Part shown: positions 1 to 25,306 of the stretch, piece after piece
Position numbering within the stretch: position 1 is the stretch's first letter
How the letters are laid out: the number at the start of each line of letters is the position of its first letter
Source: Candidatus Parcubacteria bacterium
Lineage (GTDB): Bacteria > Patescibacteriota > Minisyncoccia > Phycocordibacterales > CAIZLB01
Length of the DNA: 64,000 bases
Assembly: GCA_039795775.1 (NCBI GenBank)
Contig: JBDKLC010000005.1
Span: forward strand, 312,638 to 376,637
Reading direction: 5' to 3'
The notes under the pieces: generated by a model
Told to the model about the DNA's origin: nothing
Database searches by the model: none
What the model saw: the letters and a program-made list of their open reading frames with translations, nothing else
Made by a program: the position numbers and the translations under genes

Positions 1-1602
1 AGCTCCATATGCGTATGAGTACACATAGAAGTATCGTCGGATATGTGACCACTGGGCAAACATATATCCATCAAGTTCCTTAAACTTCATGACAGGACCA
101 ATGTATTGCTGCATGTGCTTGTTGTGCGATTGAGCGATTTCTTCTTTTGACAAAGAGCCCTTTTCTCGAATTTGCTTGTGAAGATTAAGTTCGAAATTGA
201 AACATGCGATTTGTCGGAATACTGTAGAGATATAATCCTGAATTCTGTCGTGCAAAGCAACAATTTTTTCTTTATCTGAAAGCGTTTTGAGCACTTCTTC
301 AAACGCGAGGTTTTCAAAGAATGTACTCGCAACTTCTGCTACTGAAGTAGTGTAGTGCTGATACATAGTCCGTGGCTTTTTAGAAAGCTCTGTATGAATA
401 GCATGACCCATTTCGTGAGCAAGTGTCATCACTGCATCTGTACTTGGTACGTGGTTGAGCATGACCAATGTAGGAACATTACTTCCTCCCCAGCAATATG
501 CTCCACCTTCTTTACCCTTTTTTGGATGCACATCTATCTGTCCATTTTTTACCATTGAATCAAGAATATCTACATATCGAGTACCTGCTCGGGCAAAACC
601 TTGTCGAGTGAGCTGTAGAGCTTCGTCAAAACTTACTTTCTTTTCAGTTTTTCCAATACCAACACCTCGATCTGCATATTCCAATGAAGGAAGCTTAAGA
701 AGTTTCGCCTTTAGTTTGTAGAATTTTTTACTGATAGTAAATCCTTTTGTAACAGTGTCTACAAGGGCCATAATTGCCTTTTCATCGTTTTGATAGCCCT
801 TAATTGTTGCACTATATGGATGTTCGTAGCCTCTGAGTTCGTCGTTTATCTTTTTATTTGTATAAATTGCGTTAATTTCATGTTCAGCAAAGTATGAGAC
901 GTTCTTTAAAGTCTCATTTACTAGATCTTGTAGTTTTCGTCGGTCCTTTGTTGGTAACTGTCCAATACTGTTTGTGGCTTCAGCGAGAGACATGACTTTA
1001 CCCTTGAATGTAACAGTCTGTGCTGAACGAACTTTAGCAAAACCATCTACCCACATATCGAATGCTGGTCTATTCTTGAGGCTCATTATTTTTTCCTCTG
1101 CTTCAGTTAGGTTGTAGCGCGCACCTTCGAATACTGTTTGGAGGTAGTATGTATAATCATTCAAAACTGGGCTTGTAAGAAACTTCTTTTGCTGTTCTTT
1201 TGAAATTTTTCCGAGTTTAATTTCAAAAAACAAAATGAGGTTTGAAGCCTTTGTTAATCGTGGTTCGAGCAATCCCACTTTTGCTGTAAGTGCACTGTTT
1301 TGACTTTCTACACTGAGTCGATTGTAGAGATAAAACATTGGTCGAGATGAACCAACCGTTTCAGTCATTTTTTCTAGGTCGAGGAGAGCTGTATATAATG
1401 CTTGTTCATCAGAAAGATAGTCATCTTTTTTTGCATAAGTATCAGCAAACGTCTTAAACGCGCGCTCAATAGTCTGTATATCAGCTTCAATGTTAGGGTC
1501 TTTTTCGTTTTTGTATAGCAAGGTGAAATCCCATTCTGTTTTATAGTCGGGTTTGCTTGTTTTTGTAGTAGTTGATCGATTTGTGGATGGCGATTTTTTC
1601 AT
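1..1602 (-). CDS. pepF: Oligoendopeptidase F (M3 family metallopeptidase), C-terminus truncated by window edge
   Basis: Long minus-strand ORF starting at 1602 and running off the window. The translation carries the HEXXH zinc motif (LAHEMGHAIH) and overall M3/PepF-like sequence. It is not in the ORF track because it has no in-window stop. Confidence 0.8.
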   Translation of the reverse strand, partial: MKKSPSTNRSTTTKTSKPDYKTEWDFTLLYKNEKDPNIEADIQTIERAFKTFADTYAKKDDYLSDEQALYTALLDLEKMTETVGSSRPMFYLYNRLSVESQNSALTAKVGLLEPRLTKASNLILFFEIKLGKISKEQQKKFLTSPVLNDYTYYLQTVFEGARYNLTEAEEKIMSLKNRPAFDMWVDGFAKVRSAQTVTFKGKVMSLAEATNSIGQLPTKDRRKLQDLVNETLKNVSYFAEHEINAIYTNKKINDELRGYEHPYSATIKGYQNDEKAIMALVDTVTKGFTISKKFYKLKAKLLKLPSLEYADRGVGIGKTEKKVSFDEALQLTRQGFARAGTRYVDILDSMVKNGQIDVHPKKGKEGGAYCWGGSNVPTLVMLNHVPSTDAVMTLAHEMGHAIHTELSKKPRTMYQHYTTSVAEVASTFFENLAFEEVLKTLSDKEKIVALHDRIQDYISTVFRQIACFNFELNLHKQIREKGSLSKEEIAQSHNKHMQQYIGPVMKFKELDGYMFAQWSHIRRYFYVYSYAYGA

Positions 1603-1629
1603 GCCAAAACTATAGCATAGGCTGTGCAC

Positions 1630-2262
1630 CTAGGAAATAATCTTTTTCATAACTTTAAAATCAGCCAAAAGAGTACTTTGCATGCTGCCGTTGTAGAGGG
1701 CTACGGCTGGATGATAGAGAGGTACGATCTGTACAGAGCCGTAGCGGGTCTTTGCGGTGAAGCTTCTGCCATGCATCTGTGAGATTGGTTCTATCTGATT
1801 ATGTAGACCAAATCGCTCCATCACATACACCATCGAAAAACGACCAAGAGTTGCTATCACTTGTGGTTGGATTATATCTATCTGTCGATCAAGAAACACC
1901 CCATATGCAGCAATTTCATCTGGTTTGGGGTCACGATTGTCTGTAGGTCTATCATTTACAATATTTGTAATATAGATGTCCTCACGTTTGAGTTGTACTG
2001 AGTCCAGCAATTTATCCAAAAACTTTCCTGAAGCACCACAAAAAGGCCGCCCTGTAAGCGATTCTTTTTTGCCAGGTGCTTCACCAACAAACATGATTTT
2101 TGCAAAATGACTTCCCTCTCCTATAACTGGAAATGTATTGTTAGCTCGGCGTTCATCTGCGAGTGCTGTATCAATGGCTACAACACCTTCACGAACGAGA
2201 TTGATAGCATCAGCTCGAGCTTGCAATGCGGCTTTGGTAGGTTGTGATGACTTTTTCGCCAT
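1630..2262 (-). CDS. Uracil-DNA glycosylase, family 4
   Basis: Family-4 UDG motifs: GEAPG near the N-terminus, a GRPFCGASG-like segment and a C-terminal HPA(V)ALY region. Confidence 0.85.
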   Translation of the reverse strand: MAKKSSQPTKAALQARADAINLVREGVVAIDTALADERRANNTFPVIGEGSHFAKIMFVGEAPGKKESLTGRPFCGASGKFLDKLLDSVQLKREDIYITNIVNDRPTDNRDPKPDEIAAYGVFLDRQIDIIQPQVIATLGRFSMVYVMERFGLHNQIEPISQMHGRSFTAKTRYGSVQIVPLYHPAVALYNGSMQSTLLADFKVMKKIIS

Positions 2263-2290
2263 AATTTGGCCATTATATCGCAGTGCCGGC

Positions 2291-3799
2291 TTACGCAGAA
2301 GGAGATGTACCGATTGCTACGACTTTCAAGTTCCCCATTCTTTCGATGAAGTATCTATCGTGACTTACAACAATAAGCGTACCCTCATATTCTTTGAGGG
2401 CTTCTTCGAGCGACTCTAATACTTCAAAATCGAGGTGGTTTGATGGTTCATCGAGGATGATGCAATTTACATTTTTGCACATAAGTACTGCCAATATAAA
2501 TCGTGACCGTTCACCAGAACTGAGTTCAGATATTTTTTTATTAACATCTTCTGCAGAAATCTTAAATCGATGAAGAGTTTTTCGAGCAATGCCCTCTTCA
2601 AGCTCAGTGAGTCTTAAGAATTCATCTCGTACTGTAGCGTCAGGAAGGACATCTTCTACTTGTGGCAGGTATCCGATATGAAGTCGTGCACCTTTTACGA
2701 GCATCCCACTCGTCGGAGTGAGCGTTCCGAGGAGCATTTTAATGAGCGTCGTCTTTCCAATGCCATTAGGTCCAGTGAAAAGAACTCTATCTCCATAGTT
2801 GATGGTCAGATTAATTGGTCCAAGTGTGTGGTGTGGAAGTTTCTTTGTCACATCCTTGAGATCAAATACTTTATCTCCACTTCGTTCTTCACTATAAAAC
2901 CGTACATTGAGTGGCAATGGTTCTTTCGGCTTTTCAATTTCTTCCATTCGTTCGAGTCTGTCGCCCAGTCGCTTTGCACCTTGCTGATAGGCAGTTTGAC
3001 CTTGTCGTACTTTGAAGTTGTATAGGTTTTTGTCGTTATCTCTTGGTTCAGCATTTCCAATATCTACAGCCCGTCGTAGTTTTTGGTCGATAATTTCTTC
3101 GATATGTCCACGCTTCTCGACGTCGTCAGAGTAGGCTTCCCAGGCACGCTCAAGTCGGGCTGTACGTTCTTGAATGTACGAACTGTAATTTCCTTCATAT
3201 ACGTGTAGATTTTTTTCAAATTCATCGATTTCAAATATTCTCGATACTGTTGCGTCGAGGAATGCTCGATCATGTGAAATGATTAAAAATGTTTTTGAGC
3301 TTTTCTTAATATAATCTTCAAGAAATGAAAGTGCTGCGATATCAAGGTTGTTTGTTGGTTCATCAAGAAGAAGAATATCCTGCTTGGCCATCATGATCCG
3401 GGTGAGGGCTACTTTTGTTTTTTCACCCCCACTTAGCGTACCAATCTCACGGTTAAGAATACTTGAAGATAAGTTCAACTTTTTGAACACTTTTTCAATC
3501 GCATCTTTTGCAAGTACAGTTCCAATAAAATCTTCTACCGTAGAACTATTCAATTCAGAGAATTCTTGAGGGATATATCCAATAGTGATTTTTGGTGAGA
3601 GAGTTACGATACCTTCATCTTGCTGAAGTTGAGCTGAAAGAATTCTCAAGAGCGTAGACTTCCCAGAGCCGTTTGGACCGACAAGACCAATTTTTTCACC
3701 CTTTTGAATTGAGAGATTAATATTTTTGAGTACAGGAAAAGTCTCGTATGACTTACATACGTTTGTTGAACTTATAATTGGTTTATTTTGAATAGACAT
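2291..3799 (-). CDS. ABC-F family ATPase (two tandem ABC cassettes, no transmembrane domain)
   Basis: Two Walker A motifs (GPNGSGKST, GPNGIGKTT) and two ABC signature motifs (LSGGEKTKV, LSSGERSRF) in one soluble 502-aa protein. Confidence 0.85.
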   Translation of the reverse strand: MSIQNKPIISSTNVCKSYETFPVLKNINLSIQKGEKIGLVGPNGSGKSTLLRILSAQLQQDEGIVTLSPKITIGYIPQEFSELNSSTVEDFIGTVLAKDAIEKVFKKLNLSSSILNREIGTLSGGEKTKVALTRIMMAKQDILLLDEPTNNLDIAALSFLEDYIKKSSKTFLIISHDRAFLDATVSRIFEIDEFEKNLHVYEGNYSSYIQERTARLERAWEAYSDDVEKRGHIEEIIDQKLRRAVDIGNAEPRDNDKNLYNFKVRQGQTAYQQGAKRLGDRLERMEEIEKPKEPLPLNVRFYSEERSGDKVFDLKDVTKKLPHHTLGPINLTINYGDRVLFTGPNGIGKTTLIKMLLGTLTPTSGMLVKGARLHIGYLPQVEDVLPDATVRDEFLRLTELEEGIARKTLHRFKISAEDVNKKISELSSGERSRFILAVLMCKNVNCIILDEPSNHLDFEVLESLEEALKEYEGTLIVVSHDRYFIERMGNLKVVAIGTSPSA

Positions 3800-3968
3800 A
3801 CACGCGACGACCTTTATGGGCCGTAAATTAGCTAATAAGTTGTATTAGTTGCGTGTAATCATGGGTAAAATAGTTAAGTTGTGCTAATTGTAGCAAGTAT
3901 TGTCTGTGTTGCAAAATTCACCTCGAAACTATGCTCGACGTTTGAATATATATAAATATCAACAAAGT

Positions 3969-3995
3969 AAAAAGTAGGAATATTTCCTACTTTTT
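3969..3995. terminator. Palindromic bidirectional intrinsic terminator (A-tract, GTAGGAAT/ATTCCTAC hairpin, T-tract), copy 1 of 5
   Basis: Perfect palindrome AAAAAGTAGGAATATTTCCTACTTTTT, immediately downstream of the minus-strand gene 4042..4860. Confidence 0.7.
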
Positions 3996-4041
3996 ACTTT
4001 ATACTAGTTTGAGGTATTTATTGAATTGAACTGAAAAATTA

Positions 4042-4860
4042 CTATACCTTCTTTTTAGATTTAGTTTCTTTCCCCTCTGCTGCTAATTTTGGTTTATGAC
4101 TCAAAAAATGGTCTTTAAACGCATTGCCTGCATCTGTTCGATATCGGCAGTAGTCACATGTAGCGCTTTCTTTTGGAATAGCATCAGAATCGAGGCATTC
4201 CTTGATTCTGCCAAGCGTATCATCAATCCAGTCTGCATTTCCCTTGTATGGAATGACTTTAATATTAAATTCAAGGCGTGAATCAAAACCGTCTCGGTCT
4301 TTTGTAGCATTTGCGTATACGAAGTATCCAGTATCAGATACATCAAAGCCACGGTTACGTAAAAGCCACTGATATACCTCCATTTGCCGTTTATAGCCGT
4401 CTTGCCACTCTGCATCGAGATTTACCTCACTATCCTTACTTGTCGACTTATAATCGACTACAATCAATTCTCCTTTCTTATTTATCCAAACATCATCTAC
4501 TGCACCAAAGATCAAAAAGTTTGTTGGTTCATGGTAAAACTGAACACCAACAAAGTTTTCTCGCCATGTATCCATTTCGTCATGTGCGAACGGAATAGCA
4601 TCGATTTTGTTTTCTGACATAAGTGGATGGGCCGTAGAGTCAGCACGGTGGACATCAAACTCTTTTTTCAAAAGATGATCTACAGCACTGTTGAGGTTGA
4701 AGGGAAAACTAGCAGGGCGGCCAACACCTAATCGACGGTCAAGATAAAAACACCGTGGACACTCAATAAACATATCGATTTTTGATCGACTGAGTTTGAA
4801 TTGCTCCTTACTTTTAGGGTCGTATTTTTTGACCCATTTTTTGCCAGTTGAAAATGCCAT
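4042..4860 (-). CDS. PD-(D/E)xK nuclease, Cas4/RecB-like, with four Cys (putative Fe-S staple)
   Basis: IVVDYKS and EVYQW (D/ExK) core. N-terminal CPRC and C-terminal CDYC cysteine pairs fit the Cas4/AddB-type Fe-S nuclease architecture. Separated by 2 nt from the upstream gene. Confidence 0.65.
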   Translation of the reverse strand: MAFSTGKKWVKKYDPKSKEQFKLSRSKIDMFIECPRCFYLDRRLGVGRPASFPFNLNSAVDHLLKKEFDVHRADSTAHPLMSENKIDAIPFAHDEMDTWRENFVGVQFYHEPTNFLIFGAVDDVWINKKGELIVVDYKSTSKDSEVNLDAEWQDGYKRQMEVYQWLLRNRGFDVSDTGYFVYANATKDRDGFDSRLEFNIKVIPYKGNADWIDDTLGRIKECLDSDAIPKESATCDYCRYRTDAGNAFKDHFLSHKPKLAAEGKETKSKKKV

Positions 4861-4862
4861 GA

Positions 4863-5732
4863 TTATGAATTCATTATAGACCCAATTTCCTCTAACATAC
4901 TAACTATCTTAGATTCGCTGAATCCGAGATCCTTTAGTTGTTGTGAGCTATTGTACACACTCCTACAGAGTACCATTTTGTGAGTAATGAGAAGCTGTTT
5001 TTCAGCTGGTGTGATTGTTGTGAGAGCTGTCACTGGGTGCAGCTTTGTCTCTTCGATCATATCTCTGAGGTTTCCAACCAGCGGATAATCCCAACTCATC
5101 ATATTGAGTTTGTTACATTCACCATACTTGATAGCTGTTTCTGTGAACTTTGTGTTTGTAATAAGCCATCCTTCTGCAAGTTTTCGAGGCATTTTTCCAT
5201 AGTCGTAAACGTTACTTGCAAGATCTTCATACCGAGCCTTTACATAAAGCGCAACTTTGAGATCGGTCTTACCTGAAGGTTCATTGTGATATTTCACTTC
5301 AGCCATAATGAGTTTATTTTGATTCCAAGCAACAACATCCACTTCGTGAGGAACGCAACTACCAAAGACTACTTGTCCTGTAAGGGCTTCAAAACCTTTT
5401 GCTTTGAACAACTCAGTGACATAAACCTCAAATGGAAAACCAGTTGGACCAAATTCCATAAGAGATCGTCGGAGCGAATATCGGAGCGCCGCGGGTCGAG
5501 CACGTTCTTTGAGCTCATGAAATGCTTTTTTATAAATATCAGACGCTGTTGTATCAATAATCTGATGTTCTGAGATCTGGTGAACAATAGATTTTACGAC
5601 ACTTTCAGCGACATGCTCATCTGCACCTGATTTTATGAGAGAGGTTTTTAATTTGCTTGTCTGAAACTCTTCTTTACTACCGTCTTCTTTTTGGATGTAT
5701 ATCTTTGATTGCATACTACGAAAGTATACCAC
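4863..5732 (-). CDS. ATP-cone domain fused to Mrr-like PD-(D/E)xK restriction-endonuclease domain
   Basis: N-terminal ATP-cone-like segment (KIYIQKEDGSKEEF...KLKTSLIKSG). Downstream HEVDVVAW...AEVKY nuclease core. Overlaps the mnmA 3' end by 17 nt. Confidence 0.6.
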   Translation of the reverse strand: MVYFRSMQSKIYIQKEDGSKEEFQTSKLKTSLIKSGADEHVAESVVKSIVHQISEHQIIDTTASDIYKKAFHELKERARPAALRYSLRRSLMEFGPTGFPFEVYVTELFKAKGFEALTGQVVFGSCVPHEVDVVAWNQNKLIMAEVKYHNEPSGKTDLKVALYVKARYEDLASNVYDYGKMPRKLAEGWLITNTKFTETAIKYGECNKLNMMSWDYPLVGNLRDMIEETKLHPVTALTTITPAEKQLLITHKMVLCRSVYNSSQQLKDLGFSESKIVSMLEEIGSIMNS

Positions 5733-6798
5733 CGCCTATGCACTTCGAACCACTGTAGATAACTATAGATTGTCCTGGTGTAAGGGCCGTCTGCGGTTGA
5801 TCAAAAGAAACTGAATATTGTCCGCTGTTTCCTTTTGAAATACGACATGTTTGTTTTTGCTGTCTGTATCGCGATCGAGCTTCATATGATTTTGTAAGGT
5901 CTGGTTCAGTAATAGTCCAATTTACAGATGTAAGTTCAACTGTTTTTGGCATATAATCTCCTTTTTTAAAAATATCTTGTGGCACTACCGTAATTATGTT
6001 TTTTTCGAGGTCTTTTGCAACAATATAATGAGGTGTGTCATCTGGTCGAGTGATTGTCAGTCGGAAACCATGTCGTTCACCAATTGTATACAAGAGTGAA
6101 CCGTCATGTTCGCCTATGATTGCTCCATGTGCATCAAGTACGGCCCCCTTTTCTGTTTGTATATATTCCTTTAAGAACTCCTTCATATCTACATGCCCGA
6201 GGAAGCAGATTCCCTGACTGTCTTTTTTATCAAATACTGGCAACTTATATTTCTCAGCAAGTTTTCGAACCTCAGGCTTTAGCAAGTGACCAATTGGGAA
6301 CAATGTGTGTTTGAGGTCCTTCTGATTGAGGGTCCATAAGAAATAGCTTTGATCTTTGTTAGGATCTTTTCCTTCGTGCATTTCACTTGCTTCTAGCGTC
6401 ACTATATTTTGAGCATAGTGACCTGTAGCGATAAAATCCGCACCTTGTTTCAGTGCCTCATCAAGAAACGAGCCGAATTTAATCTGCCGATTACACATCA
6501 CATCTGGGTTAGGAGTTCGCCCAAGCTTGTATTCGTTGATCATATAGTCCACTACGTCTTTTTTGTATCGTTCTGCAAAATCAAACGTAAGAAATGTAAT
6601 ATCAAGAGCCGCTGCTACGCGCATTGCATCTCGTCGTTCATCTTTCCATGTGCATTCGCCATTTTCTGGCTGCCATACTTTTATAAAAACACCTGTCACA
6701 TCGTAGCCTGCCAATTTCAAAAGAAGTGCTGATACAGAAGAATCAACACCGCCAGACATACCAACAAATACTTTAGGTTTTTTTGAAATACTCTTCAT
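5716..6798 (-). CDS. mnmA: tRNA-specific 2-thiouridylase MnmA
   Basis: PP-loop SGGVDSS at the N-terminus, MnmA-length protein, conserved catalytic-Cys context. Confidence 0.9.
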   Translation of the reverse strand: MKSISKKPKVFVGMSGGVDSSVSALLLKLAGYDVTGVFIKVWQPENGECTWKDERRDAMRVAAALDITFLTFDFAERYKKDVVDYMINEYKLGRTPNPDVMCNRQIKFGSFLDEALKQGADFIATGHYAQNIVTLEASEMHEGKDPNKDQSYFLWTLNQKDLKHTLFPIGHLLKPEVRKLAEKYKLPVFDKKDSQGICFLGHVDMKEFLKEYIQTEKGAVLDAHGAIIGEHDGSLLYTIGERHGFRLTITRPDDTPHYIVAKDLEKNIITVVPQDIFKKGDYMPKTVELTSVNWTITEPDLTKSYEARSRYRQQKQTCRISKGNSGQYSVSFDQPQTALTPGQSIVIYSGSKCIGGGILS

Positions 6799-6828
6799 AG
6801 AAGATATGCCAGACTGAGCCTATGAAAT

Positions 6829-7821
6829 TTACTTTAGATACTTATTCTTAAGGCGTACATGCTCATCATGAGTCTTAGCAAAATGAGTTATACCATCTTT
6901 ATCCGAAAGAAAGAAGAGGTAGTCGTTTGGAATGGGGCGAAGTGCAGCCTCGATACTTTGAATTCCTGGATTTGAAATCGGTGTTGGAGGAAGACCTTTA
7001 TTTGTGTAGGTGTTATAAGGTGAATTCACTTTGAGGTCATTTAGTGTAAGTTGAGCCGATGTTTTTCCGTTTACATATGTAAATGTGCTATCTACCTGAA
7101 GCGGCATTCCAATTTCTATTCTTCGCCACAAAAGATCTGCAACCATTTTTCTGTCTTGTTCTGTTTGTACCTCACCTTCTAGGATTGAAGCCATAATAAT
7201 AATATCTTTCATACTATGCGATGAACTAGCAATTTCCTGCTCATACGGCTTCAATTGCTTTTTAAAAATACTGCCCATCATAGTAATAATCATTTCAGAC
7301 GATGCTTTGGGCGGAAAGAAATACGTATTTGGAAAGAGATATCCTTCTTTACCCTGTATTGATACTAAGAATGAATCTCGATCAATATCTGGGAACTTCT
7401 CATGGATAACGTCGGCTATCTTAAATACATTTGTACCTTCAGGAATTGTGACTTTTGTTGGAATATATCCATAATCACCATTCACCACACGTCGGGCAAT
7501 ACGAATGACATTCTGAGGTTTATTAAATTCATACATTCCTGCTGATATTTTGTGTTCACCACCGAGGAGAATAATTGCACTTCGAAGTACGATGCTAGAT
7601 TTCACAACCCCTCTGTCTCTCAGTTCATTAGCAATACTAGTAAGACTTTGTCCTGATTCGATTTGGACTGTTGTGCCGGCCACAAAGTTAAATGGAGCAG
7701 CAAATACAAATGTATAAATAATAGAAGCAAATGTAATGATGACGAACGTGAAAACACTAATGAACGCCACTAGTAAGAAACTTAAAGATTTTTTCTTTTT
7801 AGGGATATAGAGATCGTCCAT
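6829..7821 (-). CDS. mltG: Endolytic murein transglycosylase MltG/YceG family
   Basis: N-terminal TM helix and a YceG-like domain with the GLPPTPISNP motif. Start moved to the internal Met (MDDLY) to avoid overlap with the upstream gene. Confidence 0.8.
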   Translation of the reverse strand: MDDLYIPKKKKSLSFLLVAFISVFTFVIITFASIIYTFVFAAPFNFVAGTTVQIESGQSLTSIANELRDRGVVKSSIVLRSAIILLGGEHKISAGMYEFNKPQNVIRIARRVVNGDYGYIPTKVTIPEGTNVFKIADVIHEKFPDIDRDSFLVSIQGKEGYLFPNTYFFPPKASSEMIITMMGSIFKKQLKPYEQEIASSSHSMKDIIIMASILEGEVQTEQDRKMVADLLWRRIEIGMPLQVDSTFTYVNGKTSAQLTLNDLKVNSPYNTYTNKGLPPTPISNPGIQSIEAALRPIPNDYLFFLSDKDGITHFAKTHDEHVRLKNKYLK

Positions 7822-7828
7822 GTAGTGA

Positions 7829-9082
7829 TTAGATAGGTAGGTTTGCTGGAGGTTCTGACTTCTTTGCCTGTACTCGACTGAGAGTTGGAGTTCGAGAGAC
7901 ATCGCCTGGGAAGTGGTAAATAGTAGCTAATTCTTCAATATTCATCACAAATGGATCTGATTTGTAACCAACTGGAATATACTCAGCCACAAAGAATGCT
8001 CGTGCCTTATACTTATCAAACAATTCTTTTTTCATCTTTTGAACCTTCTTGCCTGATCGATCTTGCCATGGATATTTTACGCCTGGAGCTTTATCTGGCT
8101 TAAAGCCGTTGAGATTTGAACTATTGTACTGTCGGAATGCACCTGTAAGTCCAGAGATCATAGAAGACCGATATGCATCTTTTCGCGCAGCATAAATACT
8201 TCGAATACCGCAATCGAATGGTGTCTTCGCCAAACTTTTTTCGATAGCATCCACAGCGTCCTTTTCTCCCTTACTGAGCTGCATTGTATTTGGATTGACT
8301 GGTTTATCTGCTTTAACCTCAACATCTCGCTTCATTCGCTTTTTGAGGTCTTCTGCAGCATCATGTTTCCAGTCTACGAGTTCCCCCCACTTGCCACCAG
8401 GTTTCTGTTTGTGCTTTACATGAGCTCTCACACAAATCTGAATCCATGCTTGCTCGCCTGGTTTGAGAGAACCAAGAAATTCAATCAATGTCGTGATAGG
8501 GTCGATTTTTACTTCTTCTTTTGGATCTTTGTCGAGACCGTAATCTACGTATGTCTTGATAGGAAGATGTGATGGGCCCGTCTTTATAAATTCACAGCCC
8601 CAAAAATCATACTTTTCAGCATTAAATTCAATAGCGTTTGTATAGTCTGCAACTTCTGTTATTTCAATATCAGGAAACTGACCATAGAGCTGAGTTTCAA
8701 TCATGTCTTTAAACTTGTCTCGAGTCCAAATGAAAAATCGAACCACTCCGTCTATAGAAGTAACTTCAAGTGAAAACCATGGTCGAGTAGACCCATTCCA
8801 GTATTTATCAAACCAGTTACCTTCACCTCCTGTCTGATAGAGCGATGTCATGAAGAGCTCCATGGCAAGTGGAGATTTGGTGATACCACGAGGGATCTTG
8901 AGTTCGAGTACTTTATACTTTTGCGCAGCGAAGAATGTTGCACGCACAAAGGCCACCCAGTTTTTCCAAAATGATCTGAGTAATAAGTACGGAAATAAGA
9001 GTACGATAAAGAGCAGCACAAATTGAAATGCTGAGAATATGATAGGTCCAATTGCTTCTCGAAATGTAATAGCTGCGTCCAC
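7829..9082 (-). CDS. Hypothetical membrane-anchored protein (417 aa)
   Basis: Long ORF with an N-terminal hydrophobic segment and no recognisable catalytic motifs. Confidence 0.55.
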   Translation of the reverse strand: MDAAITFREAIGPIIFSAFQFVLLFIVLLFPYLLLRSFWKNWVAFVRATFFAAQKYKVLELKIPRGITKSPLAMELFMTSLYQTGGEGNWFDKYWNGSTRPWFSLEVTSIDGVVRFFIWTRDKFKDMIETQLYGQFPDIEITEVADYTNAIEFNAEKYDFWGCEFIKTGPSHLPIKTYVDYGLDKDPKEEVKIDPITTLIEFLGSLKPGEQAWIQICVRAHVKHKQKPGGKWGELVDWKHDAAEDLKKRMKRDVEVKADKPVNPNTMQLSKGEKDAVDAIEKSLAKTPFDCGIRSIYAARKDAYRSSMISGLTGAFRQYNSSNLNGFKPDKAPGVKYPWQDRSGKKVQKMKKELFDKYKARAFFVAEYIPVGYKSDPFVMNIEELATIYHFPGDVSRTPTLSRVQAKKSEPPANLPI

Positions 9083-9163
9083 GTGTCTATTTTAACTTGT
9101 TATCTGCCAAGACGGAAGAGGAAAAGAAAAGACCTCGATATGCTCGGGGTCTTTTTCTTCAAA

Positions 9164-10207
9164 CTATTTAGTTTCGATGAGGTGATATTTTCCTTCTTTG
9201 TCTTTCTTGAAGAATTTTGTGTTCTGGAGATTGACGAGGATAGTGTTTTCTTTTACGTATCGTTCTTTGAGTACTTTTTCGATAATCTGCTCTTTTGTGA
9301 GTGGACCATTCTTTTCGAGTACTTTCTTGATAACGTCTTTTACGACACCACTGAGGTAACCCCATTCTGTGAGAGCGTATAATCCTCGGCCAACGAGTAC
9401 GAATCGTTTATCTTTGATAAGTTCGTTGTGAGTTGTAGCAATGTGAGCCTTTTTATTGAAAAGCTGGTTGATGAGCTTAGCAATGTCTCGGAAGTGAATT
9501 GGAGATCCGTGTTTTCGCATAGCGAGGAATGCGTAGTCTCGAATACCCTTTGTTCGGATATTTGGAGATACTGATTTACCCCATTCACCAAGAGGGTTCT
9601 TATCGATATGTTTTGAAATTCGGAGCCATCGCTTTGCGACTTCCTCATTCCGATACTTTTCGTTTACATCCTTGAGGTGTTCGAGGAAACTCTTAATCAT
9701 TTCTGATTCTGGTACGAGATCATCGTCATCGAGGCCTTTGTAGAGTTTTCGGAGCGCTTCGTGAATCTTTTTTGAGAGTTCTGTATCTACATGCCATCGG
9801 TGTTTGAATTCACCGTCTTCTTTTTCTTTCTTAAATACGTCACTTACCACGAGCATAAAGTGAATGTGGTTCTGAACTGATTTGTCCTTAGAAAGGTGGT
9901 TGAGGAGGTCGTCTTCTGCAAGTACGGCACCGAGGTCTCGGATTACTACTTCGAGTTCTTCAAAAGCGATTTTTTCACCCTTAAAATGAGCCGATTTCCG
10001 GATATTTGCAAGAGCTGCATTTTCGATCTGTCGTACTCGTTCTCGAGTGATATTATACAACTCACCAATGGCTTCAAGAGTCATTCGTTCGTTGTCTTTA
10101 TCAAGACCGTATCGTTTTGTTACTACAAGACGTGCTCGCTCAGGAAGTGCTGAAAGCAATTTCTTTGTAACATTCTTCGGTTTGTAGGTTAGTCCTATAG
10201 TTGCCAT
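9164..10207 (-). CDS. Sigma-70 region 4-like HTH protein with long C-terminal extension
   Basis: N-terminus resembles RpoD region 4 (LEAIGELYNITRERVRQIENAAL). No regions 1-3. The remaining ~270 aa are uncharacterised. Confidence 0.65.
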   Translation of the reverse strand: MATIGLTYKPKNVTKKLLSALPERARLVVTKRYGLDKDNERMTLEAIGELYNITRERVRQIENAALANIRKSAHFKGEKIAFEELEVVIRDLGAVLAEDDLLNHLSKDKSVQNHIHFMLVVSDVFKKEKEDGEFKHRWHVDTELSKKIHEALRKLYKGLDDDDLVPESEMIKSFLEHLKDVNEKYRNEEVAKRWLRISKHIDKNPLGEWGKSVSPNIRTKGIRDYAFLAMRKHGSPIHFRDIAKLINQLFNKKAHIATTHNELIKDKRFVLVGRGLYALTEWGYLSGVVKDVIKKVLEKNGPLTKEQIIEKVLKERYVKENTILVNLQNTKFFKKDKEGKYHLIETK

Positions 10208-10283
10208 ATAAGTTATACTTTATTTTTAGCACATCCTGTTAAATACGTCAAGTTTTTGTCAATATTTGACTATTGTCTAATAC

Positions 10284-13139
10284 TTACAATCCTGGGACTA
10301 CAATATTCACCAACTTTCCTTTAACGTAGATTACTCTAGCTGGTGTCTTATCCCCTATTCGTGCCTTAATCTTGTCCATTAATAGCACCATTGATTTTAC
10401 TTCTTCCTCATCATCTGTGTGACTTACAAATGTTTCTCGTACTTTGCCGTTAATTTGAACAACAATCTTCCATGTATCTGACTGAAGTTTCTTTGGATCA
10501 AATTCTTGCCATGGCATTGTGTGGATACTCTTCTTATTTCCAAGTTCTGCCCAAATTTCTTCTGTCACATGTGGAGCAATTGGAGCGAGGAGTTGGAGAA
10601 GCACTTCGTATTCGTTTCTGTAAACTGTTTCTTCTTTCTCGAGTGCGTTGAGCAAAATCATAAGAGATGAAACTGCTGTGTTGAATCCCATCGATTCTAT
10701 ATCATCTCCCACCTTCTTGATTGTCTGATTGATGATGAGTTCAAGATGCTTTCGCGAGCCATCTGTAGGTGCTTTTTTCTTTGTAACTACGTTTTCCTCA
10801 AGATTGTAAACTCGTTCGATGAATCGTCGTGAACCAATCATGTTTGAGGTGTTCCACGCGATAGCCTGATCGAATGGTCCCATGAACATTTCGTACACTC
10901 GGAGCGTATCAGCGCCATAGAGAGCAACGAGTTCGTCAGGACTTACCGTATTTCCCTTAGATTTAGACATTTTTTCTCCGCCTTCGGCCAAGATAAGTCC
11001 ATGAGATGTTCGTTTCTGATACGGTTCTTTTGTTGGAACCACACCAATGTCATACAAGAACTTGTGCCAGAATCGAGAATACAATAAGTGGAGCGTTGTG
11101 TGTTCCATTCCTCCATTGTACCAATCGATTGGTGTCCAATACTTAAGATTTTTTTCTGAAGCGAGTGCTTTTTTATTCTTTGAATCTGCATATCGGAGAT
11201 AGTACCAACTTGAACCAGCCCACTGGGGCATAGTGTCAGTTTCTCGTTTTGCAGGTCCCTTACATGTTGGACACTTTGTATTCACCCATTTTGTAAGCGT
11301 CGCAAGTGGAGACTCACCTGTATCAGTTGGAGCAAACTCTTTGATTGTAGGAAGCTTGAGCGGTAATTCTTTTTCAGGAAGAGCTACAATTCCGCACTTT
11401 TCACATGTTACGACTGGAATTGGTTCACCCCAGTATCGCTGCCGAGAGAAAATCCAATCTCGGAGTTTGTACTTTACTACCATCTTGCCACCAACTGCCT
11501 TTGTAATGTCTTTCTTTGCTTGTTCTGATGAAATACCATCAAACTTTTGTGAGTTAAAGAGTGTTCCTTCACCCAAGAATGGCTGCTTATCAATAAACTT
11601 CGCAAACCCATATACGTGAAGTATTTCTTTTACCTCTTTTCGAGCTCGATCTACCGGAAGCCACTCGAGAACAAATTTATTCTTTTCATTTTCTTCGAGG
11701 GCAGTCTCTTTTTGTGTCAGACTATTCAATCTAATATGAACAAATGTTGTTTTTGCTTCAAATGCTTTATTTTTTGAATGAGCAAAATATCGATACGTAA
11801 ATGTTTCCTCACTCACATCAACGATTTTTGCATCTGTATATCCTGTTTCTTCTGCAAGTTCTCGGATAGCTGTCACCTGTGGCAACTCACCCTGTTCAAC
11901 AGTACCTCCAACAAAAAGTCTTCCACCAAGCTCTGGTTTCCAGTTTATTGTGAGAATATTTCCCTTTCCGTCTTCTACAATAGCGACAATTTTGTTTTTG
12001 AGCTCAAATGACTTCACACCGGCCACGTCTGGTCGTTCATGAATAGGATTAAGTACTGGCTTGAAAGGAAGATTGTATTTGAGAGCAAAGACATGGTCTC
12101 GAGCATCGTGAGCAGGTACGGCCATAACTGCTCCAGTACCATATGAAGCCAATACATAGTCTGCAATCCAAACAGGAATTTCTTCTCCGTTTACTGGGTT
12201 GATAGCAACAACGCCTTTGAGTACGACACCAGTTTTTTCTTTTCCTTCTGCAGTTCGTTCGATTTCGGCTACGCCTTTGAGAGACTCAATATATTCTTCT
12301 ACTTCAGAATAATTTGAAATATTCTTTGAAAGTTTTTTAACAAGCTCGTGCTCAGGTGCAAGTACAACATATGTCACGCCAAACAACGTATCCGCTCGTG
12401 TCGTAAATACAGTGATTGTTTCTTCTGTACCTTTTATTTTAAATGAAAGTTCTGCCCCCTCGCTTCGTCCAATCCAGTTTCGTTGCTGAATTTTGATCTT
12501 TTCAAGGTAATCGACATCGTCGAGATCTTTGTCGAGTCGATCGGCATATTTTGTAATAGCGAGGATCCACTGATTCTTGTCTTTCTTAGTTACTTCAGTA
12601 CCACATCGTTCACATTTGCCATCAATAACTTCTTCGTTAGCAAGTACGGTCTTATCTTTTGGACACCAGTTTACATGTGTCATTTTCTTGAAAGCGAGAC
12701 CTTTCTTAAACATTTGCAAAAAGATCCACTGTGTCCACTTGTAGTATTCAGGGTCTGTAGTATTCACTTCTCGTGACCAATCAAAAGAAATACCGAGTGC
12801 CTTGAGCTGTCGTCTGAAGTTATCAGTGTTTGTTTTTGTTACTTTTGCAGGTTGAATGCCTGTCTTGATAGCGTAGTTTTCTGTAGGAAGGCCGAATGCA
12901 TCCCAACCAATTGGATACAACACGTTTTCACCTTGAGCTCGTCTCTTTCGGGCTACGGCATCCATAGCGGCATAACTTCGGATATGCCCAGTGTGAAGAC
13001 CCGCTCCAGATGGGAATGGGAATTCAATGAGGCCGTAAAACTTTTTAGCTTTACTTGTGTCAGAGGCTCGGTACATCTTTTTTGTTTCCCAAACCTTCTG
13101 CCATTTCTTCTCTATTTTCTTGTGGTCGTATTTGTTCAT
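10284..13139 (-). CDS. leuS: Leucyl-tRNA synthetase with an inserted NUDIX hydrolase domain
   Basis: HIGH motif (HTGHIRSY), KMSKS, editing-domain motifs (TTRADT, GTGAVMAVPAHD). A ~150-aa insertion carries a perfect Nudix box, GGTVEQGELPQVTAIRELAEETGY. Confidence 0.9.
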   Translation of the reverse strand: MNKYDHKKIEKKWQKVWETKKMYRASDTSKAKKFYGLIEFPFPSGAGLHTGHIRSYAAMDAVARKRRAQGENVLYPIGWDAFGLPTENYAIKTGIQPAKVTKTNTDNFRRQLKALGISFDWSREVNTTDPEYYKWTQWIFLQMFKKGLAFKKMTHVNWCPKDKTVLANEEVIDGKCERCGTEVTKKDKNQWILAITKYADRLDKDLDDVDYLEKIKIQQRNWIGRSEGAELSFKIKGTEETITVFTTRADTLFGVTYVVLAPEHELVKKLSKNISNYSEVEEYIESLKGVAEIERTAEGKEKTGVVLKGVVAINPVNGEEIPVWIADYVLASYGTGAVMAVPAHDARDHVFALKYNLPFKPVLNPIHERPDVAGVKSFELKNKIVAIVEDGKGNILTINWKPELGGRLFVGGTVEQGELPQVTAIRELAEETGYTDAKIVDVSEETFTYRYFAHSKNKAFEAKTTFVHIRLNSLTQKETALEENEKNKFVLEWLPVDRARKEVKEILHVYGFAKFIDKQPFLGEGTLFNSQKFDGISSEQAKKDITKAVGGKMVVKYKLRDWIFSRQRYWGEPIPVVTCEKCGIVALPEKELPLKLPTIKEFAPTDTGESPLATLTKWVNTKCPTCKGPAKRETDTMPQWAGSSWYYLRYADSKNKKALASEKNLKYWTPIDWYNGGMEHTTLHLLYSRFWHKFLYDIGVVPTKEPYQKRTSHGLILAEGGEKMSKSKGNTVSPDELVALYGADTLRVYEMFMGPFDQAIAWNTSNMIGSRRFIERVYNLEENVVTKKKAPTDGSRKHLELIINQTIKKVGDDIESMGFNTAVSSLMILLNALEKEETVYRNEYEVLLQLLAPIAPHVTEEIWAELGNKKSIHTMPWQEFDPKKLQSDTWKIVVQINGKVRETFVSHTDDEEEVKSMVLLMDKIKARIGDKTPARVIYVKGKLVNIVVPGL

Positions 13140-13145
13140 AAATAA

Positions 13146-14222
13146 TTAGTTTGATGGATAGGGCTTTCTTTTTGTTTTTCTTCCTGCTTTTCTGAAGGCA
13201 CCTTTACCATATGTTGCCTCAATAATTCGAGCTAGTTCCAGAACTCTACCGCTAAAATAAGATTTAGTGAAGAGTCTAAATACATCTCCGGGACTATTAA
13301 ATCTATCTTTATTTTTTTCGTATAATTCCTTGTTCGCTTTTTCCAGTTCACGTCTTTCTTTTTTATACGCTCCACCCTCACGTGTATACACTTCCGCACC
13401 CGAACCAACTTGCTCACCGATGACATTATCTACCACAATTACTGGAGCACCCGCCTGGGTAGAAAATTCAGTTTGGCGTGCTTCGAGTTCTTTTTTGCGT
13501 TCAACAATGTCTTCTTCTAAACCTTTTATTGAAGTGCTTTTTACTCTCATGAACCGCAATGCCAACTCTTCTACAACAGCCTCATTTACATCAGTAAAAT
13601 AAGATTGTAACTGTTTGCCTCCACCACCATCTTCCTCATTCACCATAAACTCAAGACCAATTCTTCGGTCACCGAGTTTGATCTTATTTTTTTCAGCATC
13701 TTTGCCAACTACATGTTTACTTGCAAATCCAAATCCGTGAATGAGTTCGTGCGCTAGTACATGTGCAAATTCTATTTTACTAGTTCTTTTGATGAAATTA
13801 TTATCAATAGCAATATATTGTCCGCCGGCATCCCATATAGCGGGAGTATGTTTAAATCGTTTTCGAATGACCTCCTTTCTTTCTTCAGGATATGATGAAT
13901 TCTCAGCATCAATTATATGAATCTGCTCAGGCTTGAATTGAATTGGATGTTCGGGACCATATTCTTTCAAAAAGTCTGGCAACATATTACATACATCGAC
14001 AATAATCTCGAGTTGTTCCATCGTTTTCATGATTTCACACCCATAAAATGGTTGATGTTCGAAATCACGAGCATACCGAGCAATGACTTGCTCCTCACTT
14101 ACTGGCGCATCTTTAGGGATACCGACAACTCTTTTGATTGCCGTATTGTGATGAACCTGTTCTTGAGGTTCTACAGATACTTCAGGCTCAATTGGATTAG
14201 GAATGGGCGCACCCTCTTTCAT
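13146..14222 (-). CDS. Hypothetical protein with HEXXH zinc-metallopeptidase-like motif
   Basis: AHVLAHELIHGFGF motif with acidic residues downstream, which could make it a gluzincin. No other family signal. Confidence 0.5.
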   Translation of the reverse strand: MKEGAPIPNPIEPEVSVEPQEQVHHNTAIKRVVGIPKDAPVSEEQVIARYARDFEHQPFYGCEIMKTMEQLEIIVDVCNMLPDFLKEYGPEHPIQFKPEQIHIIDAENSSYPEERKEVIRKRFKHTPAIWDAGGQYIAIDNNFIKRTSKIEFAHVLAHELIHGFGFASKHVVGKDAEKNKIKLGDRRIGLEFMVNEEDGGGGKQLQSYFTDVNEAVVEELALRFMRVKSTSIKGLEEDIVERKKELEARQTEFSTQAGAPVIVVDNVIGEQVGSGAEVYTREGGAYKKERRELEKANKELYEKNKDRFNSPGDVFRLFTKSYFSGRVLELARIIEATYGKGAFRKAGRKTKRKPYPSN

Positions 14223-23113: not shown

Positions 23114-23989
23114 ATGCAACCAAGGAAACGAAGAGCTGGCACACCTGCACCAGCCTCAACTATCTGGAAAATATCGGCTCTAGTACTCGTATCTATTTTT
23201 ACCATACTTTTGGTAGGAGGTACAGTTTCGTTGTCTAAGTTGGGGCTTGAACCTTGGAGATTTTATCTCAATGTCGCAAACCCAAATGTCACATTTGTAA
23301 GTATTCAAGCAGGTCTCCGAAAAGAACAAATCGCTGAAATTTTGTCGAAACAGCTGAGCTGGCCTGAATCAGAAAAGGGGGCTTTCATGGCAGCGGCTGC
23401 AAAGCGTGATAAACAAAATCCTGAGGGTGTCTTCCTCCCTGGTAACTACTGGGTCTACAAAACAGCTACAGGCGAGCAGGTAGCCAATCAGATGATCGAT
23501 GCTTTCTACTCTAAGGTTAAGCAAAACATCCTTAACAAAGATCAAACAAATTTTAAAGATAAAATGAATTTGGCTACAGCAGTCAAAATCGCTTCTATCC
23601 TCCAACGAGAAGCGGCTGGTCCTGAAGATATGAAAATTATTTCAGGTGTAATATGGAATCGACTCTTTAGAGGCATGACACTCGATATGGACGCCACACT
23701 TCAGTACAGCAAAGGTGCTCCAGGCGACTGGTGGCCAAAAGTTGCTTCTTCTGACAAGCGACTTGAATCTCAATTTAATACATACAAATTCAAAGGCCTT
23801 CCTCCAACAGCTATTGCAAACCCAAGTCTCGATGCTCTCTATGCCGCGTACAATCCTTCTTCTACAGATTGTATTTTCTACATTCACGATGCAAAACGGA
23901 ATTTTCACTGCTCTGTTACCTACGAAGAACACAAACAAAATATTTCTACATATTTGATTGGTAAGAAGCCAACTCCTTCTAGTTTGTAA
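23114..23989 (+). CDS. MltG/YceG-like endolytic transglycosylase paralog
   Basis: N-terminal TM helix and a YceG-like domain (IASILQREA, GLPPTAIANP). Confidence 0.75.
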   Translation: MQPRKRRAGTPAPASTIWKISALVLVSIFTILLVGGTVSLSKLGLEPWRFYLNVANPNVTFVSIQAGLRKEQIAEILSKQLSWPESEKGAFMAAAAKRDKQNPEGVFLPGNYWVYKTATGEQVANQMIDAFYSKVKQNILNKDQTNFKDKMNLATAVKIASILQREAAGPEDMKIISGVIWNRLFRGMTLDMDATLQYSKGAPGDWWPKVASSDKRLESQFNTYKFKGLPPTAIANPSLDALYAAYNPSSTDCIFYIHDAKRNFHCSVTYEEHKQNISTYLIGKKPTPSSL

Positions 23990-24010: not shown

Positions 24011-25306
24011 CTACATACACAGAGCAATTCCCACAAACGGAATATTTATTCTGCGTTCTCGAAAACCAACATGCTTTGATTCATAGTCGCTTTTTTGTAA
24101 TGCAGACATGCTCGATCCCAGAAACACTGTATGGCTGCCAAAGGTTTTGTTGAGATCGTCCACGACAGAAAATACTTTATCACTCGATTCAGCTATTTCA
24201 CTTTGTCCAAATAGATCCCTTGTCACCGCTTCTTCTTCGATCAAGCTGCGCAATGTGATGCCAGATGTTCGATAGAGTGTGCGTGCATTGTATACCTGAT
24301 CAAAATACTGCCGAACAACTTTGAGAAGCTCGTTTGGTGATGACGTAGCCAACGGCAGGTTTATTTCGACACTCCGATACCGAAATTCAGACGTCTTGAG
24401 ATAAAACGTAATCGCACGACTAGATACTCCATGAAAGCGGGCTTTTTCACAAGCCATCTCTATATTTTTTGAAAGTTGAGAAAATATGAATTGTCTATCT
24501 GACGTCGCAGGAGTAAAGGTACGAGACTTCATAATAGAACCGATATCACTCGCAGGTGACGCCGCTGTCGATAACTCTTTTACAAAATATCCCTGAAACT
24601 CAAGCCAAATCTCTTTGTATGGTTTCGCTATTTGATTCACTCGCATCCACGCGTCGTCTTTTATTGCAAAGTCGTATGCCGTCTCAATTCCCCTCTGTCT
24701 CAAATACATAGACATAGCGCCACCAATTCCCCACACTTTGTGAATCGGCAATTGTTTTATAAAACTCACTATGTCTTCTTTTTTTATAACAGTAAATCCC
24801 GCAGGCTTCTTGTGCTTTGATGCTACTTTGGCCAGTACTTTGTTTGGAGCAAGCCCCACACCAAATGTAATACCAAGTTTCATTTCAAGATCTTTCTTTA
24901 TATTGAATGCGTACTCAGCGTGGGTCATACCGTGTGGCAATGTCACATCGGTGATATCAGCAAAACATTCATCTATACTGTATTCCTCTACGTGAGGCGT
25001 GTATCGACGCACGATGTTGTACATGCGCCGCGCAAATATGCAGTACATTTCATAATCAGAATCTAAAAGAATTGCTTCGGGACATACTTTTTTTATTTCA
25101 CCAATACGCATACCTCGTGTCACACCTTTGGCTTTTGCCTCATAACTAAAAGCCGCAGCAATACCACGCTCGAGACCCGTAATAACAGGCTTACCTTTGA
25201 GTTTGTGATTCTTGGCTTGTTCTACAGATGCAAAAAAAGCATCACCATCTATGTGAAGAATGTATCGAGACTTATGTGGAATTGATGATAAACGAGGAGA
25301 ATTCAT
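24011..25306 (-). CDS. umuC: Y-family translesion DNA polymerase (UmuC/DinB-like)
   Basis: N-terminal ILHIDGDAFFASVE catalytic motif of Y-family polymerases. Immediately downstream of the S24 peptidase gene. Confidence 0.85.
   Translation of the reverse strand: MNSPRLSSIPHKSRYILHIDGDAFFASVEQAKNHKLKGKPVITGLERGIAAAFSYEAKAKGVTRGMRIGEIKKVCPEAILLDSDYEMYCIFARRMYNIVRRYTPHVEEYSIDECFADITDVTLPHGMTHAEYAFNIKKDLEMKLGITFGVGLAPNKVLAKVASKHKKPAGFTVIKKEDIVSFIKQLPIHKVWGIGGAMSMYLRQRGIETAYDFAIKDDAWMRVNQIAKPYKEIWLEFQGYFVKELSTAASPASDIGSIMKSRTFTPATSDRQFIFSQLSKNIEMACEKARFHGVSSRAITFYLKTSEFRYRSVEINLPLATSSPNELLKVVRQYFDQVYNARTLYRTSGITLRSLIEEEAVTRDLFGQSEIAESSDKVFSVVDDLNKTFGSHTVFLGSSMSALQKSDYESKHVGFRERRINIPFVGIALCM

Follow-up and report, generated by a model that had tools for sequence, protein, structure and literature searches.

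A predicted ATP-cone PD-(D/E)xK nuclease family in a housekeeping gene string of Patescibacteria and beside nucleotide-catabolic genes in other lineages

ATP-cones are the allosteric switches of ribonucleotide reductases (RNRs) and of the repressor NrdR. The literature searched holds no paper describing a family in which such a cone is joined to a nuclease, save for the prediction made for AF1548 of Archaeoglobus fulgidus, which was called a restriction endonuclease with a D38/E51/K53 triad in the 2007 Global Ocean Sampling prediction (PMC1821046). Most CPR (candidate phyla radiation) bacteria cannot make nucleotides de novo and are expected to be DNA scavengers (PMC6744442), and some CPR genomes, those encoding RubisCO, also carry the AMP phosphorylase pathway (PMC5113843). 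Here we analyse a stretch of 64,000 nt of the Candidatus Parcubacteria contig JBDKLC010000005.1 (hereafter the window, to which all coordinates refer), where three open reading frames (ORFs) lie head to tail on the minus strand and encode MnmA, a predicted ATP-cone nuclease and a Cas4-like nuclease. We tentatively favour the view that the ATP-cone nuclease is an endonuclease which senses adenine nucleotides and feeds the breakdown and salvage of nucleic acid, and that the Cas4-like enzyme is an exonuclease partner which it can do without.

The product of the middle gene matched the Pfam ATP-cone family PF03477 over residues 11-85 of the 289-aa ORF (27.4 bits, cutoff 25.8) and passed the Mrr_cat cutoff marginally (21.5 bits versus 21), which bears out the fusion of an ATP-cone to an Mrr-type core that had been proposed from the DNA letters in an initial annotation; the two motifs quoted there, HEVDVVAW and AEVKY, are present and contain the invariant residues D126, E139 and K141. 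The score against AF1548-like_C (PF22357) was just below the cutoff (23.8 versus 23.9 bits), and phmmer aligned residues 105-284 with the crystallised AF1548 chain (PDB 1Y88) at E = 1e-23. The AlphaFold model (predicted local distance difference test score, pLDDT, 91.5) consists of two parts, an N-terminal cone and a C-terminal nuclease. In Foldseek comparisons, the cone superposed on the NrdR cones of Escherichia coli and Streptomyces coelicolor at ~2.1 Å over ~81 aligned columns, and the C-terminal part matched 1y88 (E = 5e-15, TM 0.77 on target), with weaker similarity of the nuclease core to MspJI, AspBHI, SduA, Can2 and Cdn1. The C-terminal helical domain probably binds nucleic acid.

The predicted catalytic residues E96, D126, E139 and K141 were invariant in 24 of 24 Patescibacteria homologues, and also in homologues from Bacteroidota and Chlamydiota, and they align with the triad predicted for AF1548. 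Because of this invariance, the ATP-cone nuclease is likely an active enzyme. On the cone side, K9 and K21 are conserved, which we take to correspond to phosphate ligands of E. coli NrdA, and a basic residue is retained in the last helix; the Arg of the KRDG motif (position 10), a motif presumably equivalent to the phosphate-binding K-R...K residues of E. coli NrdA, is replaced by E, A or Y. The nucleotide gating suggested by the initial annotation is plausible: the fold is NrdR-like and the two lysines are retained, although the Arg is replaced.

The cone and the nuclease occur together throughout the family, which comprises at least 4,337 clusters at 90% identity. At 50% identity, 380 clusters were recovered with E <= 1e-30, almost all of 275-290 aa and matched end to end, with a constant order of ATP-cone, AF1548-type core with an intact E...D...ExK signature, and helical C-terminal domain. 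The fusion is ancestral to the family and constant within it. The cone is also found in archaea: a 265-aa protein 99% identical to AF1548 (P0391; locus L172, 6001-6798) carries an ATP-cone, unlike the crystallised chain, and a search with the AF1548 sequence found the cone in homologues from Archaeoglobi, Korarchaeota, Bathyarchaeia, Aenigmarchaeota and Nanoarchaeota. The PDB 1Y88 chain is an N-terminally short form and, since the full-length form has a cone that is absent from it, both the structure and the Pfam name under-describe the protein. Judged from these sequences, the family spans bacteria and archaea. Two homologues carry an Hjc Pfam match, and some sources label homologues 'Holliday junction resolvase'.

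Outside Patescibacteria, the family was repeatedly found next to genes of nucleotide catabolism. In Pontibacter actiniarum and Criblamydia sequanensis, where the matches are on plasmids, the ATP-cone nuclease gene heads a four-gene operon in which genes 2-4 encode a beta-CASP metallo-beta-lactamase (MBL) hydrolase, a ~500-aa protein of the thymidine phosphorylase (TP) family and a ribose-phosphate diphosphokinase (phosphoribosyl pyrophosphate, PRPP, synthase). The TP-family protein matched TIGR02645/PRK04350 and scored 480-506 bits against the AMP phosphorylase model, whose cutoff is 535; the Criblamydia operon is flanked by genes for phosphoketolase, glycogen phosphorylase (glgP) and acetate kinase. 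In a metagenome-assembled genome (MAG) of Schleiferiaceae, the ATP-cone nuclease gene is followed by a beta-CASP gene carrying an RMMBL domain. A metagenome scan seeded with this clade gave 80 loci, and the beta-CASP gene lay directly downstream in 38 of the 64 with enough flank; TP-family genes were counted in 16/44 and PRPP synthase genes in 15/44. Neither mnmA nor a gene for the Cas4-like nuclease, uracil-DNA glycosylase (UDG) or MltG was present in any of these 80 loci. The conserved four-gene operon (L085, 1972-6597; L086, 6995-11602; L088-L167) was seen in Bacteroidota, Chlamydiota and many marine metagenome contigs, often with a 2-hydroxyacid dehydrogenase gene upstream, and no description of it was found in the literature searched.

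A comparable association was observed in one of the seven archaeal loci inspected. In a Bathyarchaeia locus (L173), the order is ribose-1,5-bisphosphate (R15P) isomerase (TIGR00511, 419 bits, cutoff 314), AMP phosphorylase (TIGR03327, 617 bits, cutoff 535) and ATP-cone nuclease, the last two genes overlapping by 11 nt. The six others resemble ordinary housekeeping regions, with CorA, MscS, adenylosuccinate lyase, a Bmp nucleoside-binding protein and a DHH phosphoesterase among the neighbours, and none is a defence island. Association of the ATP-cone nuclease family with genes of nucleotide catabolism is recurrent, in at least two lineages that are unrelated.

In Patescibacteria, the gene context is different and conserved. 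From a scan of a single genome for each GTDB species, the 80 loci closest to the query (L001-L080) were retained; 79 of them are labelled Patescibacteria/CPR or unclassified, the remaining one (L064) being from a Schleiferiaceae MAG (Bacteroidota). Gene order was taken from tblastn with the window proteins, plus called-gene tables for further loci. The recurrent order was LeuRS (leucyl-tRNA synthetase), a sigma4/HARE-HTH protein, DUF8128, MltG, MnmA, ATP-cone nuclease, (Cas4-like nuclease), (MGMT), UDG, its part from LeuRS to MltG being seen in most of these loci and in L081, L082, L084, L169 and L170; the called-gene tables for L081, L082, L169 and L170 confirmed the string, with MGMT, peptidase M3 and AlaRS (alanyl-tRNA synthetase) downstream. 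The three genes are the 3' end of this co-directional housekeeping string and, because it recurs in related genomes, the arrangement is beyond chance. The DUF8128 protein always follows the sigma-70 region 4 + HARE-HTH protein, and no other part of the string is as constant as these two.

Gene mnmA lay upstream of the ATP-cone nuclease gene on the same strand in 69 of 75 related loci, directly adjacent in 53, versus 0/80 loci outside the lineage. Its link with the nucleases, which had been regarded as unexpected, is so only when seen in isolation and, since it is conserved within the lineage yet gone outside it, is best explained by inherited gene order with translational coupling rather than by shared function. 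The Cas4-like gene lay downstream of the ATP-cone nuclease gene in only 31 of 72 related loci (adjacent in 24) and UDG in 35 of 72. The reverse cases were also found: L084 has MnmA, the Cas4-like nuclease and UDG without the ATP-cone gene, and in an Uhrbacteria locus (L168) the Cas4-like gene stands alone between pilus ATPase genes and TyrRS (tyrosyl-tRNA synthetase). Because each occurs without the other, the two nucleases are not obligate partners. In some relatives, small unrelated genes are inserted between them, among them those for an MgtC-like protein, DUF7282 and a YfbR-like HD 5'-deoxynucleotidase. When the Cas4-like gene is not adjacent, the position between the ATP-cone nuclease and UDG is usually taken by a small membrane protein of the MgtC/SapB-like type (~145 aa; L014, L017, L027, L030, L037, L038, L065). 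Across the loci, median identity to the window proteins was 66% for the sigma-like protein, 61% for the Cas4-like nuclease, 55% for UDG, 53% for MnmA, 46% for the ATP-cone nuclease and 41% for MltG; both nucleases evolve like their housekeeping neighbours, with conservation about equal or higher.

The third gene product was matched by Pfam PDDEXK_1 (52.6 bits) and Cas_Cas4 (24.2 bits), and by the PADLOC Cas4 models (E = 3e-10), and it scored 31.8 bits against NCBIfam cas4 (TIGR00372), under the cutoff of 65. Its RecB motifs (D122/D123, D136-Y-K138, Q159..Y163) are invariant among homologues, as are five cysteines (C34, C37, C222, C235 and C238; pattern CxxC...Cx12CxxC). The assignment to a Cas4/AddB-like PD-(D/E)xK nuclease with CPRC and CDYC motifs is upheld by these data, the four-cysteine arrangement given with it being replaced by five invariant positions. 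The best structural matches of its model (pLDDT 84.7) were Cas4 (7mi4), AdnAB, MGME1, RecE, SSO0001 and EXO5. A direct-repeat scan of the whole window found no CRISPR-like array, and the gene's neighbours are housekeeping genes; association with CRISPR was rejected on the lack of a repeat array in the window. We class the protein as a solo Cas4/RecB-like nuclease.

Relatives of the Cas4-like nuclease were present on 14 of 2.9 million IMG/VR viral contigs, some of them phage-like, with a methylase, a ResIII helicase, a PIF1-like helicase and a terminase nearby. On one phage-like contig (L177, 48-8870), the Cas4-like nuclease is 68% identical to that of the window and its gene is flanked by those for a DNA methylase, a ResIII/TnsA-like protein, a PIF1/RecD-like helicase and a terminase, which suggests exchange between Patescibacteria and their phages. 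The phage-like copies fit a general DNA-end nuclease family shared with phages, not defence. Among 72,556 plasmids, a single match was obtained, located among hypothetical, nucleotide-kinase and helicase-related genes.

All three genes were confirmed on the minus strand at the positions first proposed (Table 1). The product of mnmA also matched Pfam tRNA_Me_trans and its M and C domains. The gap of 2 nt before the Cas4-like gene held, and the 17-nt overlap between mnmA and the ATP-cone nuclease gene did not, as it requires the alternative GTG start at 5732 (289 aa). The ATG at 5714 is the likelier start, because homologues begin ~4 residues ahead of the cone; with it, the junction reads TAG-T-ATG, a spacer of 1 nt. 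A terminator after the last gene was recovered, its span of 3969..3995 being corrected to the longer one in Table 1: RNA folding of 3950..4045 gave -24 kcal/mol (z = -5.8; 0 of 200 shuffles folded as well), and no other strong hairpin was present on the minus strand. With spacers of 1 and 2 nt and a strong hairpin at the end, the three genes are very probably co-transcribed and translationally coupled, which keeps the proposed co-transcription of mnmA with both nucleases plausible. In the window, every gene between LeuRS and the Cas4-like gene, these two included, points the same way, with gaps of at most 81 nt, and the three-gene operon may be the end of a longer unit reaching back toward LeuRS. 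The start of the transcription unit was not placeable by the promoter scan, where sigma-70-like matches were fewer than in shuffled sequence, and an Rfam and tRNA search of 1..14000 found no RNA gene or riboswitch around the locus.

Table 1. Features of the locus and its surroundings, in window coordinates.
Feature	Position	Strand	Details
mnmA, tRNA 2-thiouridine(34) synthase	5716..6798	-	360 aa; NCBIfam NF001138 equivalog, 411 bits, cutoff 284
Predicted ATP-cone / AF1548-type PD-(D/E)xK nuclease	4863..5714	-	283 aa from ATG 5714
Predicted ATP-cone domain	5478..5702	-	residues ~5-79; PF03477
Predicted PD-(D/E)xK nuclease core	5100..5441	-	residues ~92-205
Predicted catalytic residue E96		-	
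Predicted catalytic residue D126	5337..5339	-	
Predicted catalytic residue E139	5298..5300	-	
Predicted catalytic residue K141	5292..5294	-	
AF1548-like C-terminal helical domain	4881..5036	-	residues ~227-278; aligns to 1Y88 residues 117-193
Predicted Cas4/RecB-family nuclease, solo, not CRISPR-associated	4042..4860	-	272 aa
Intrinsic-terminator-like hairpin	3962..4002	-	19-bp stem, then T-rich tail; ends transcription unit
Promoter-like site with extended TG, for next gene	3915..3887	-	follows hairpin
ABC-F ATPase gene	2291..3799		separates UDG from Cas4-like gene in the window
Family-4 uracil-DNA glycosylase (UDG)	1630..2262	-	NCBIfam UDG_fam4, 179 bits, cutoff 125; usual downstream member of string
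MltG/YceG	6829..7902	-	Pfam; upstream; part of housekeeping string
DUF8128 protein	7829..9082	-	Pfam; upstream; 417 aa
Sigma-70 region 4 + HARE-HTH protein	9164..10207	-	Pfam; upstream
LeuRS	10284..13139	-	Pfam; upstream

Under the reading that we tentatively favour, an adenine nucleotide (ATP, dATP or a related one) bound to the cone would set the activity or the oligomeric state of the endonuclease, which would open nucleic acid so that it can be degraded to mononucleotides. In other phyla, the beta-CASP hydrolase encoded immediately downstream would complete the breakdown, and the products would be consumed by the AMP-phosphorylase-type enzyme and PRPP synthase, or by AMP phosphorylase and R15P isomerase. 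In the nucleotide-auxotrophic Patescibacteria, the Cas4/RecB-like nuclease would take the place of the exonuclease partner and the products would supply salvage. A more ambitious version, where the family as a whole is the missing, cone-gated entry enzyme of nucleic-acid catabolism, is possible and rather doubtful. The enzyme would then liberate oligo- or mononucleotides from DNA or RNA according to adenine nucleotide status; in archaea and several bacterial phyla these would go into AMP phosphorylase and pentose-bisphosphate metabolism, and in Patescibacteria into salvage, with the Cas4-like, putatively Fe-S-bearing exonuclease replacing the beta-CASP enzyme. Several observations weigh against a salvage role. 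The immediate neighbours in Patescibacteria are DNA-repair genes (UDG, MGMT), not salvage enzymes, the only salvage pointers there being the occasional YfbR-like HD 5'-deoxynucleotidase genes, and genes for AMP phosphorylase, a beta-CASP hydrolase or PRPP synthase are not in the 64-kb window. A salvage gene is adjacent in just one of the seven archaeal contexts, and the Cas4-like partner is missing nearby in 57% of related loci. The 80 Patescibacteria-centred loci are the nearest relatives of the query, and their gene order may reflect shared ancestry alone. With the KRDG Arg replaced, binding of ATP or dATP is not assured by the cone sequence, and the function proposed for the family is read from sequence, models and the gene context of other lineages.

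The architecture of a nucleotide-sensing domain on one nuclease, with a second nuclease beside it, had been put forward as that of a defence or DNA-processing module. The second half of this proposal remains viable, whereas anti-phage defence, in which an Mrr-like effector sensing nucleotides would act with the second nuclease to restrict DNA or abort infection upon a change in the pool, now appears very unlikely. The sensor + PD-(D/E)xK layout does recall Can2, Card1 and Cdn1, the core resembles MspJI, AspBHI and SduA, PADLOC gave weak matches to CARF-PDDEXK models (E = 1e-4 to 5e-3), and two homologues are plasmid-borne. However, the fixed position in the housekeeping string and the housekeeping-level conservation speak against it, as does a length and architecture nearly uniform across bacteria and archaea. 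In PADLOC-DB v2, the ATP-cone nuclease had no significant match (Csx1 alone, at E = 0.005), the third gene matched nothing but Cas4 adaptation models, and mnmA gave just a weak match to QueC; PADLOC run on the three window proteins and the Pontibacter operon proteins was likewise discarded as a lead, yielding only Cas4 models and weak, chance-level matches. Pfam and neighbourhood checks near the locus found no methyltransferase, cas gene or other defence gene and, as claimed, the absence of a methyltransferase (none within ~10 kb) argues against a classical restriction-modification system. The Mrr_N domain, which recognises modified DNA, had no match, the N-terminus being the cone. Neither nuclease had a tblastn match in 50,697 phage records and the ATP-cone nuclease had no relative in the 2.9 million IMG/VR contigs, upon which its association with phages was rejected; together with the fixed synteny, this differs from the variable, mobile or defence-island context of Mrr-type enzymes. 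Association with plasmids was rejected too, with two ATP-cone nuclease matches, both inside metabolic operons, and the one Cas4-like match among the plasmids searched. No defence gene neighboured the nuclease genes in any of ~180 loci inspected, and the locus is not a defence island. Its position and level of conservation argue for housekeeping, and the lesson is that a sensor + nuclease architecture with a second nuclease adjoining does not equal a defence system.

The main rival to the salvage reading is DNA repair or recombination, which we consider fairly unlikely: the ATP-cone nuclease would be a structure-specific endonuclease (an Hjc-like resolvase, or a flap or nick enzyme), the Cas4-like nuclease would resect ends, and both would act alongside UDG and MGMT, the cone coupling activity to dNTP or ATP supply. 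In its favour, the string in Patescibacteria runs ATP-cone nuclease, Cas4-like nuclease, MGMT, UDG, the structural matches of the Cas4-like model include nucleases that resect DNA ends (AdnAB, AddB, RecE, EXO5 and MGME1), and close homologues of the Cas4-like nuclease adjoin a PIF1/RecD-like helicase on phage-like contigs; besides the resolvase labels and the two Hjc Pfam matches, Foldseek gave a weak match of the ATP-cone nuclease to Hjc 2wiw (E = 0.04). Yet the partners in other bacterial phyla and in Bathyarchaeia are nucleotide-catabolism enzymes, the beta-CASP partner has an RMMBL 'RNA specificity' domain, and the Patescibacteria string is without helicase or recombinase. That the three genes have no functional relationship, and merely share an inherited compact order while serving unrelated processes, is unlikely. 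Each nuclease is found without the other, unrelated small genes (MgtC-like, DUF7282, HD) are inserted in relatives and the mnmA link is lost outside the lineage; on the other side, the tight spacers with a single terminator imply co-expression, the Cas4-like gene is directly adjacent in a third of the related loci (24/72), and in two unrelated contexts the gene after that of the ATP-cone nuclease encodes an exonuclease-type partner, Cas4-like in one and beta-CASP in the other. Finally, a tRNA-directed nuclease tied to MnmA, for example one cleaving or checking s2U34 tRNAs, would account for the frequent adjacency of mnmA (53/75) and for the 1-nt spacer in the window, but seems extremely unlikely, as mnmA was not associated with the nuclease in the 80 non-Patescibacteria loci or the 7 archaeal loci, and L084 has mnmA without the ATP-cone nuclease.

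Under the more ambitious version of the salvage reading, this would be the first ATP-cone controlling a nuclease. The family, which is large, well conserved and present in Patescibacteria, Bacteroidota, Chlamydiota and many archaea, would add a variant to the ligand-gated PD-(D/E)xK nucleases. If it gates nucleic-acid breakdown by nucleotide status, this would explain how nucleotide-auxotrophic, DNA-scavenging Patescibacteria escape both starvation and self-digestion, and the AMP phosphorylase pathway would gain a step upstream of it.

Other features of the window were recorded alongside. In LeuRS, a NUDIX hydrolase domain (residues 384-502; PF00293, 50.9 bits) is inserted just past the editing domain; the L084 homologue shares it, and those of L169 and L170, ~100 aa shorter, do not have it. 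The first ~1.6 kb of the window (1..1630) contains no ORF of at least 90 aa on either strand, no tRNA and no credible Rfam match, which is unusual for a compact Patescibacteria genome and could be a decayed gene or a non-coding element. A second YceG/MltG paralogue (23114..23989, plus strand) and a gene for a Y-family (ImpB/MucB/SamB) DNA polymerase (24011..25306, minus strand) lie ~17 kb from the locus.

Compared with known systems, the Cas4-like protein shares with Cas4, AddB, AdnAB, EXO5 and MGME1 the D, DxK and QxxxY motifs and the cysteines at both ends of the domain. It differs from the Cas4 family in its cysteine pattern (CxxC...Cx12CxxC, five invariant, versus C...CxxCx5C), in the lack of cas1/cas2 or a CRISPR array in the window, and in having no fused helicase. 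The ATP-cone nuclease belongs to the same catalytic superfamily as the type IV enzymes Mrr, MspJI and AspBHI (Mrr_cat 21.5 bits; Foldseek with MspJI E = 1e-4), but has no Mrr_N or SRA-like module and sits in a housekeeping synteny block. It resembles Can2, Card1 and Cdn1 of type III CRISPR systems in the fusion of a small nucleotide sensor to an Mrr-like core (Foldseek E = 1e-4 to 1e-2), the sensor being an ATP-cone rather than CARF and the context being without CRISPR or defence genes; this likeness may indicate a possible working mode, not family membership.

The closer parallels lie elsewhere. With the cones of NrdR and of the RNR activity site, the protein shares its N-terminal fold and the retained K9 and K21, whereas the output comes from a nuclease domain instead of a zinc-ribbon DNA binder or a reductase, the KRDG Arg is replaced, and its score against the NCBIfam NrdR model is 16.9 bits (cutoff 125). 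With AF1548, it shares the nuclease core, the C-terminal helical domain and the predicted D/E/K triad; the AF1548 chain was crystallised without the cone, so that the full architecture is unseen in any structure, and the archaeal genomic contexts differ from that of the window. The pathway of AMP phosphorylase, R15P isomerase and type III RubisCO has no nuclease assigned to it in the literature searched, and the link with it proposed here is one of gene context, located outside the window: the ATP-cone nuclease is operonic with genes of this pathway in Bathyarchaeia and, in Bacteroidota and Chlamydiota, with those for PRPP synthase and an enzyme resembling AMP phosphorylase.

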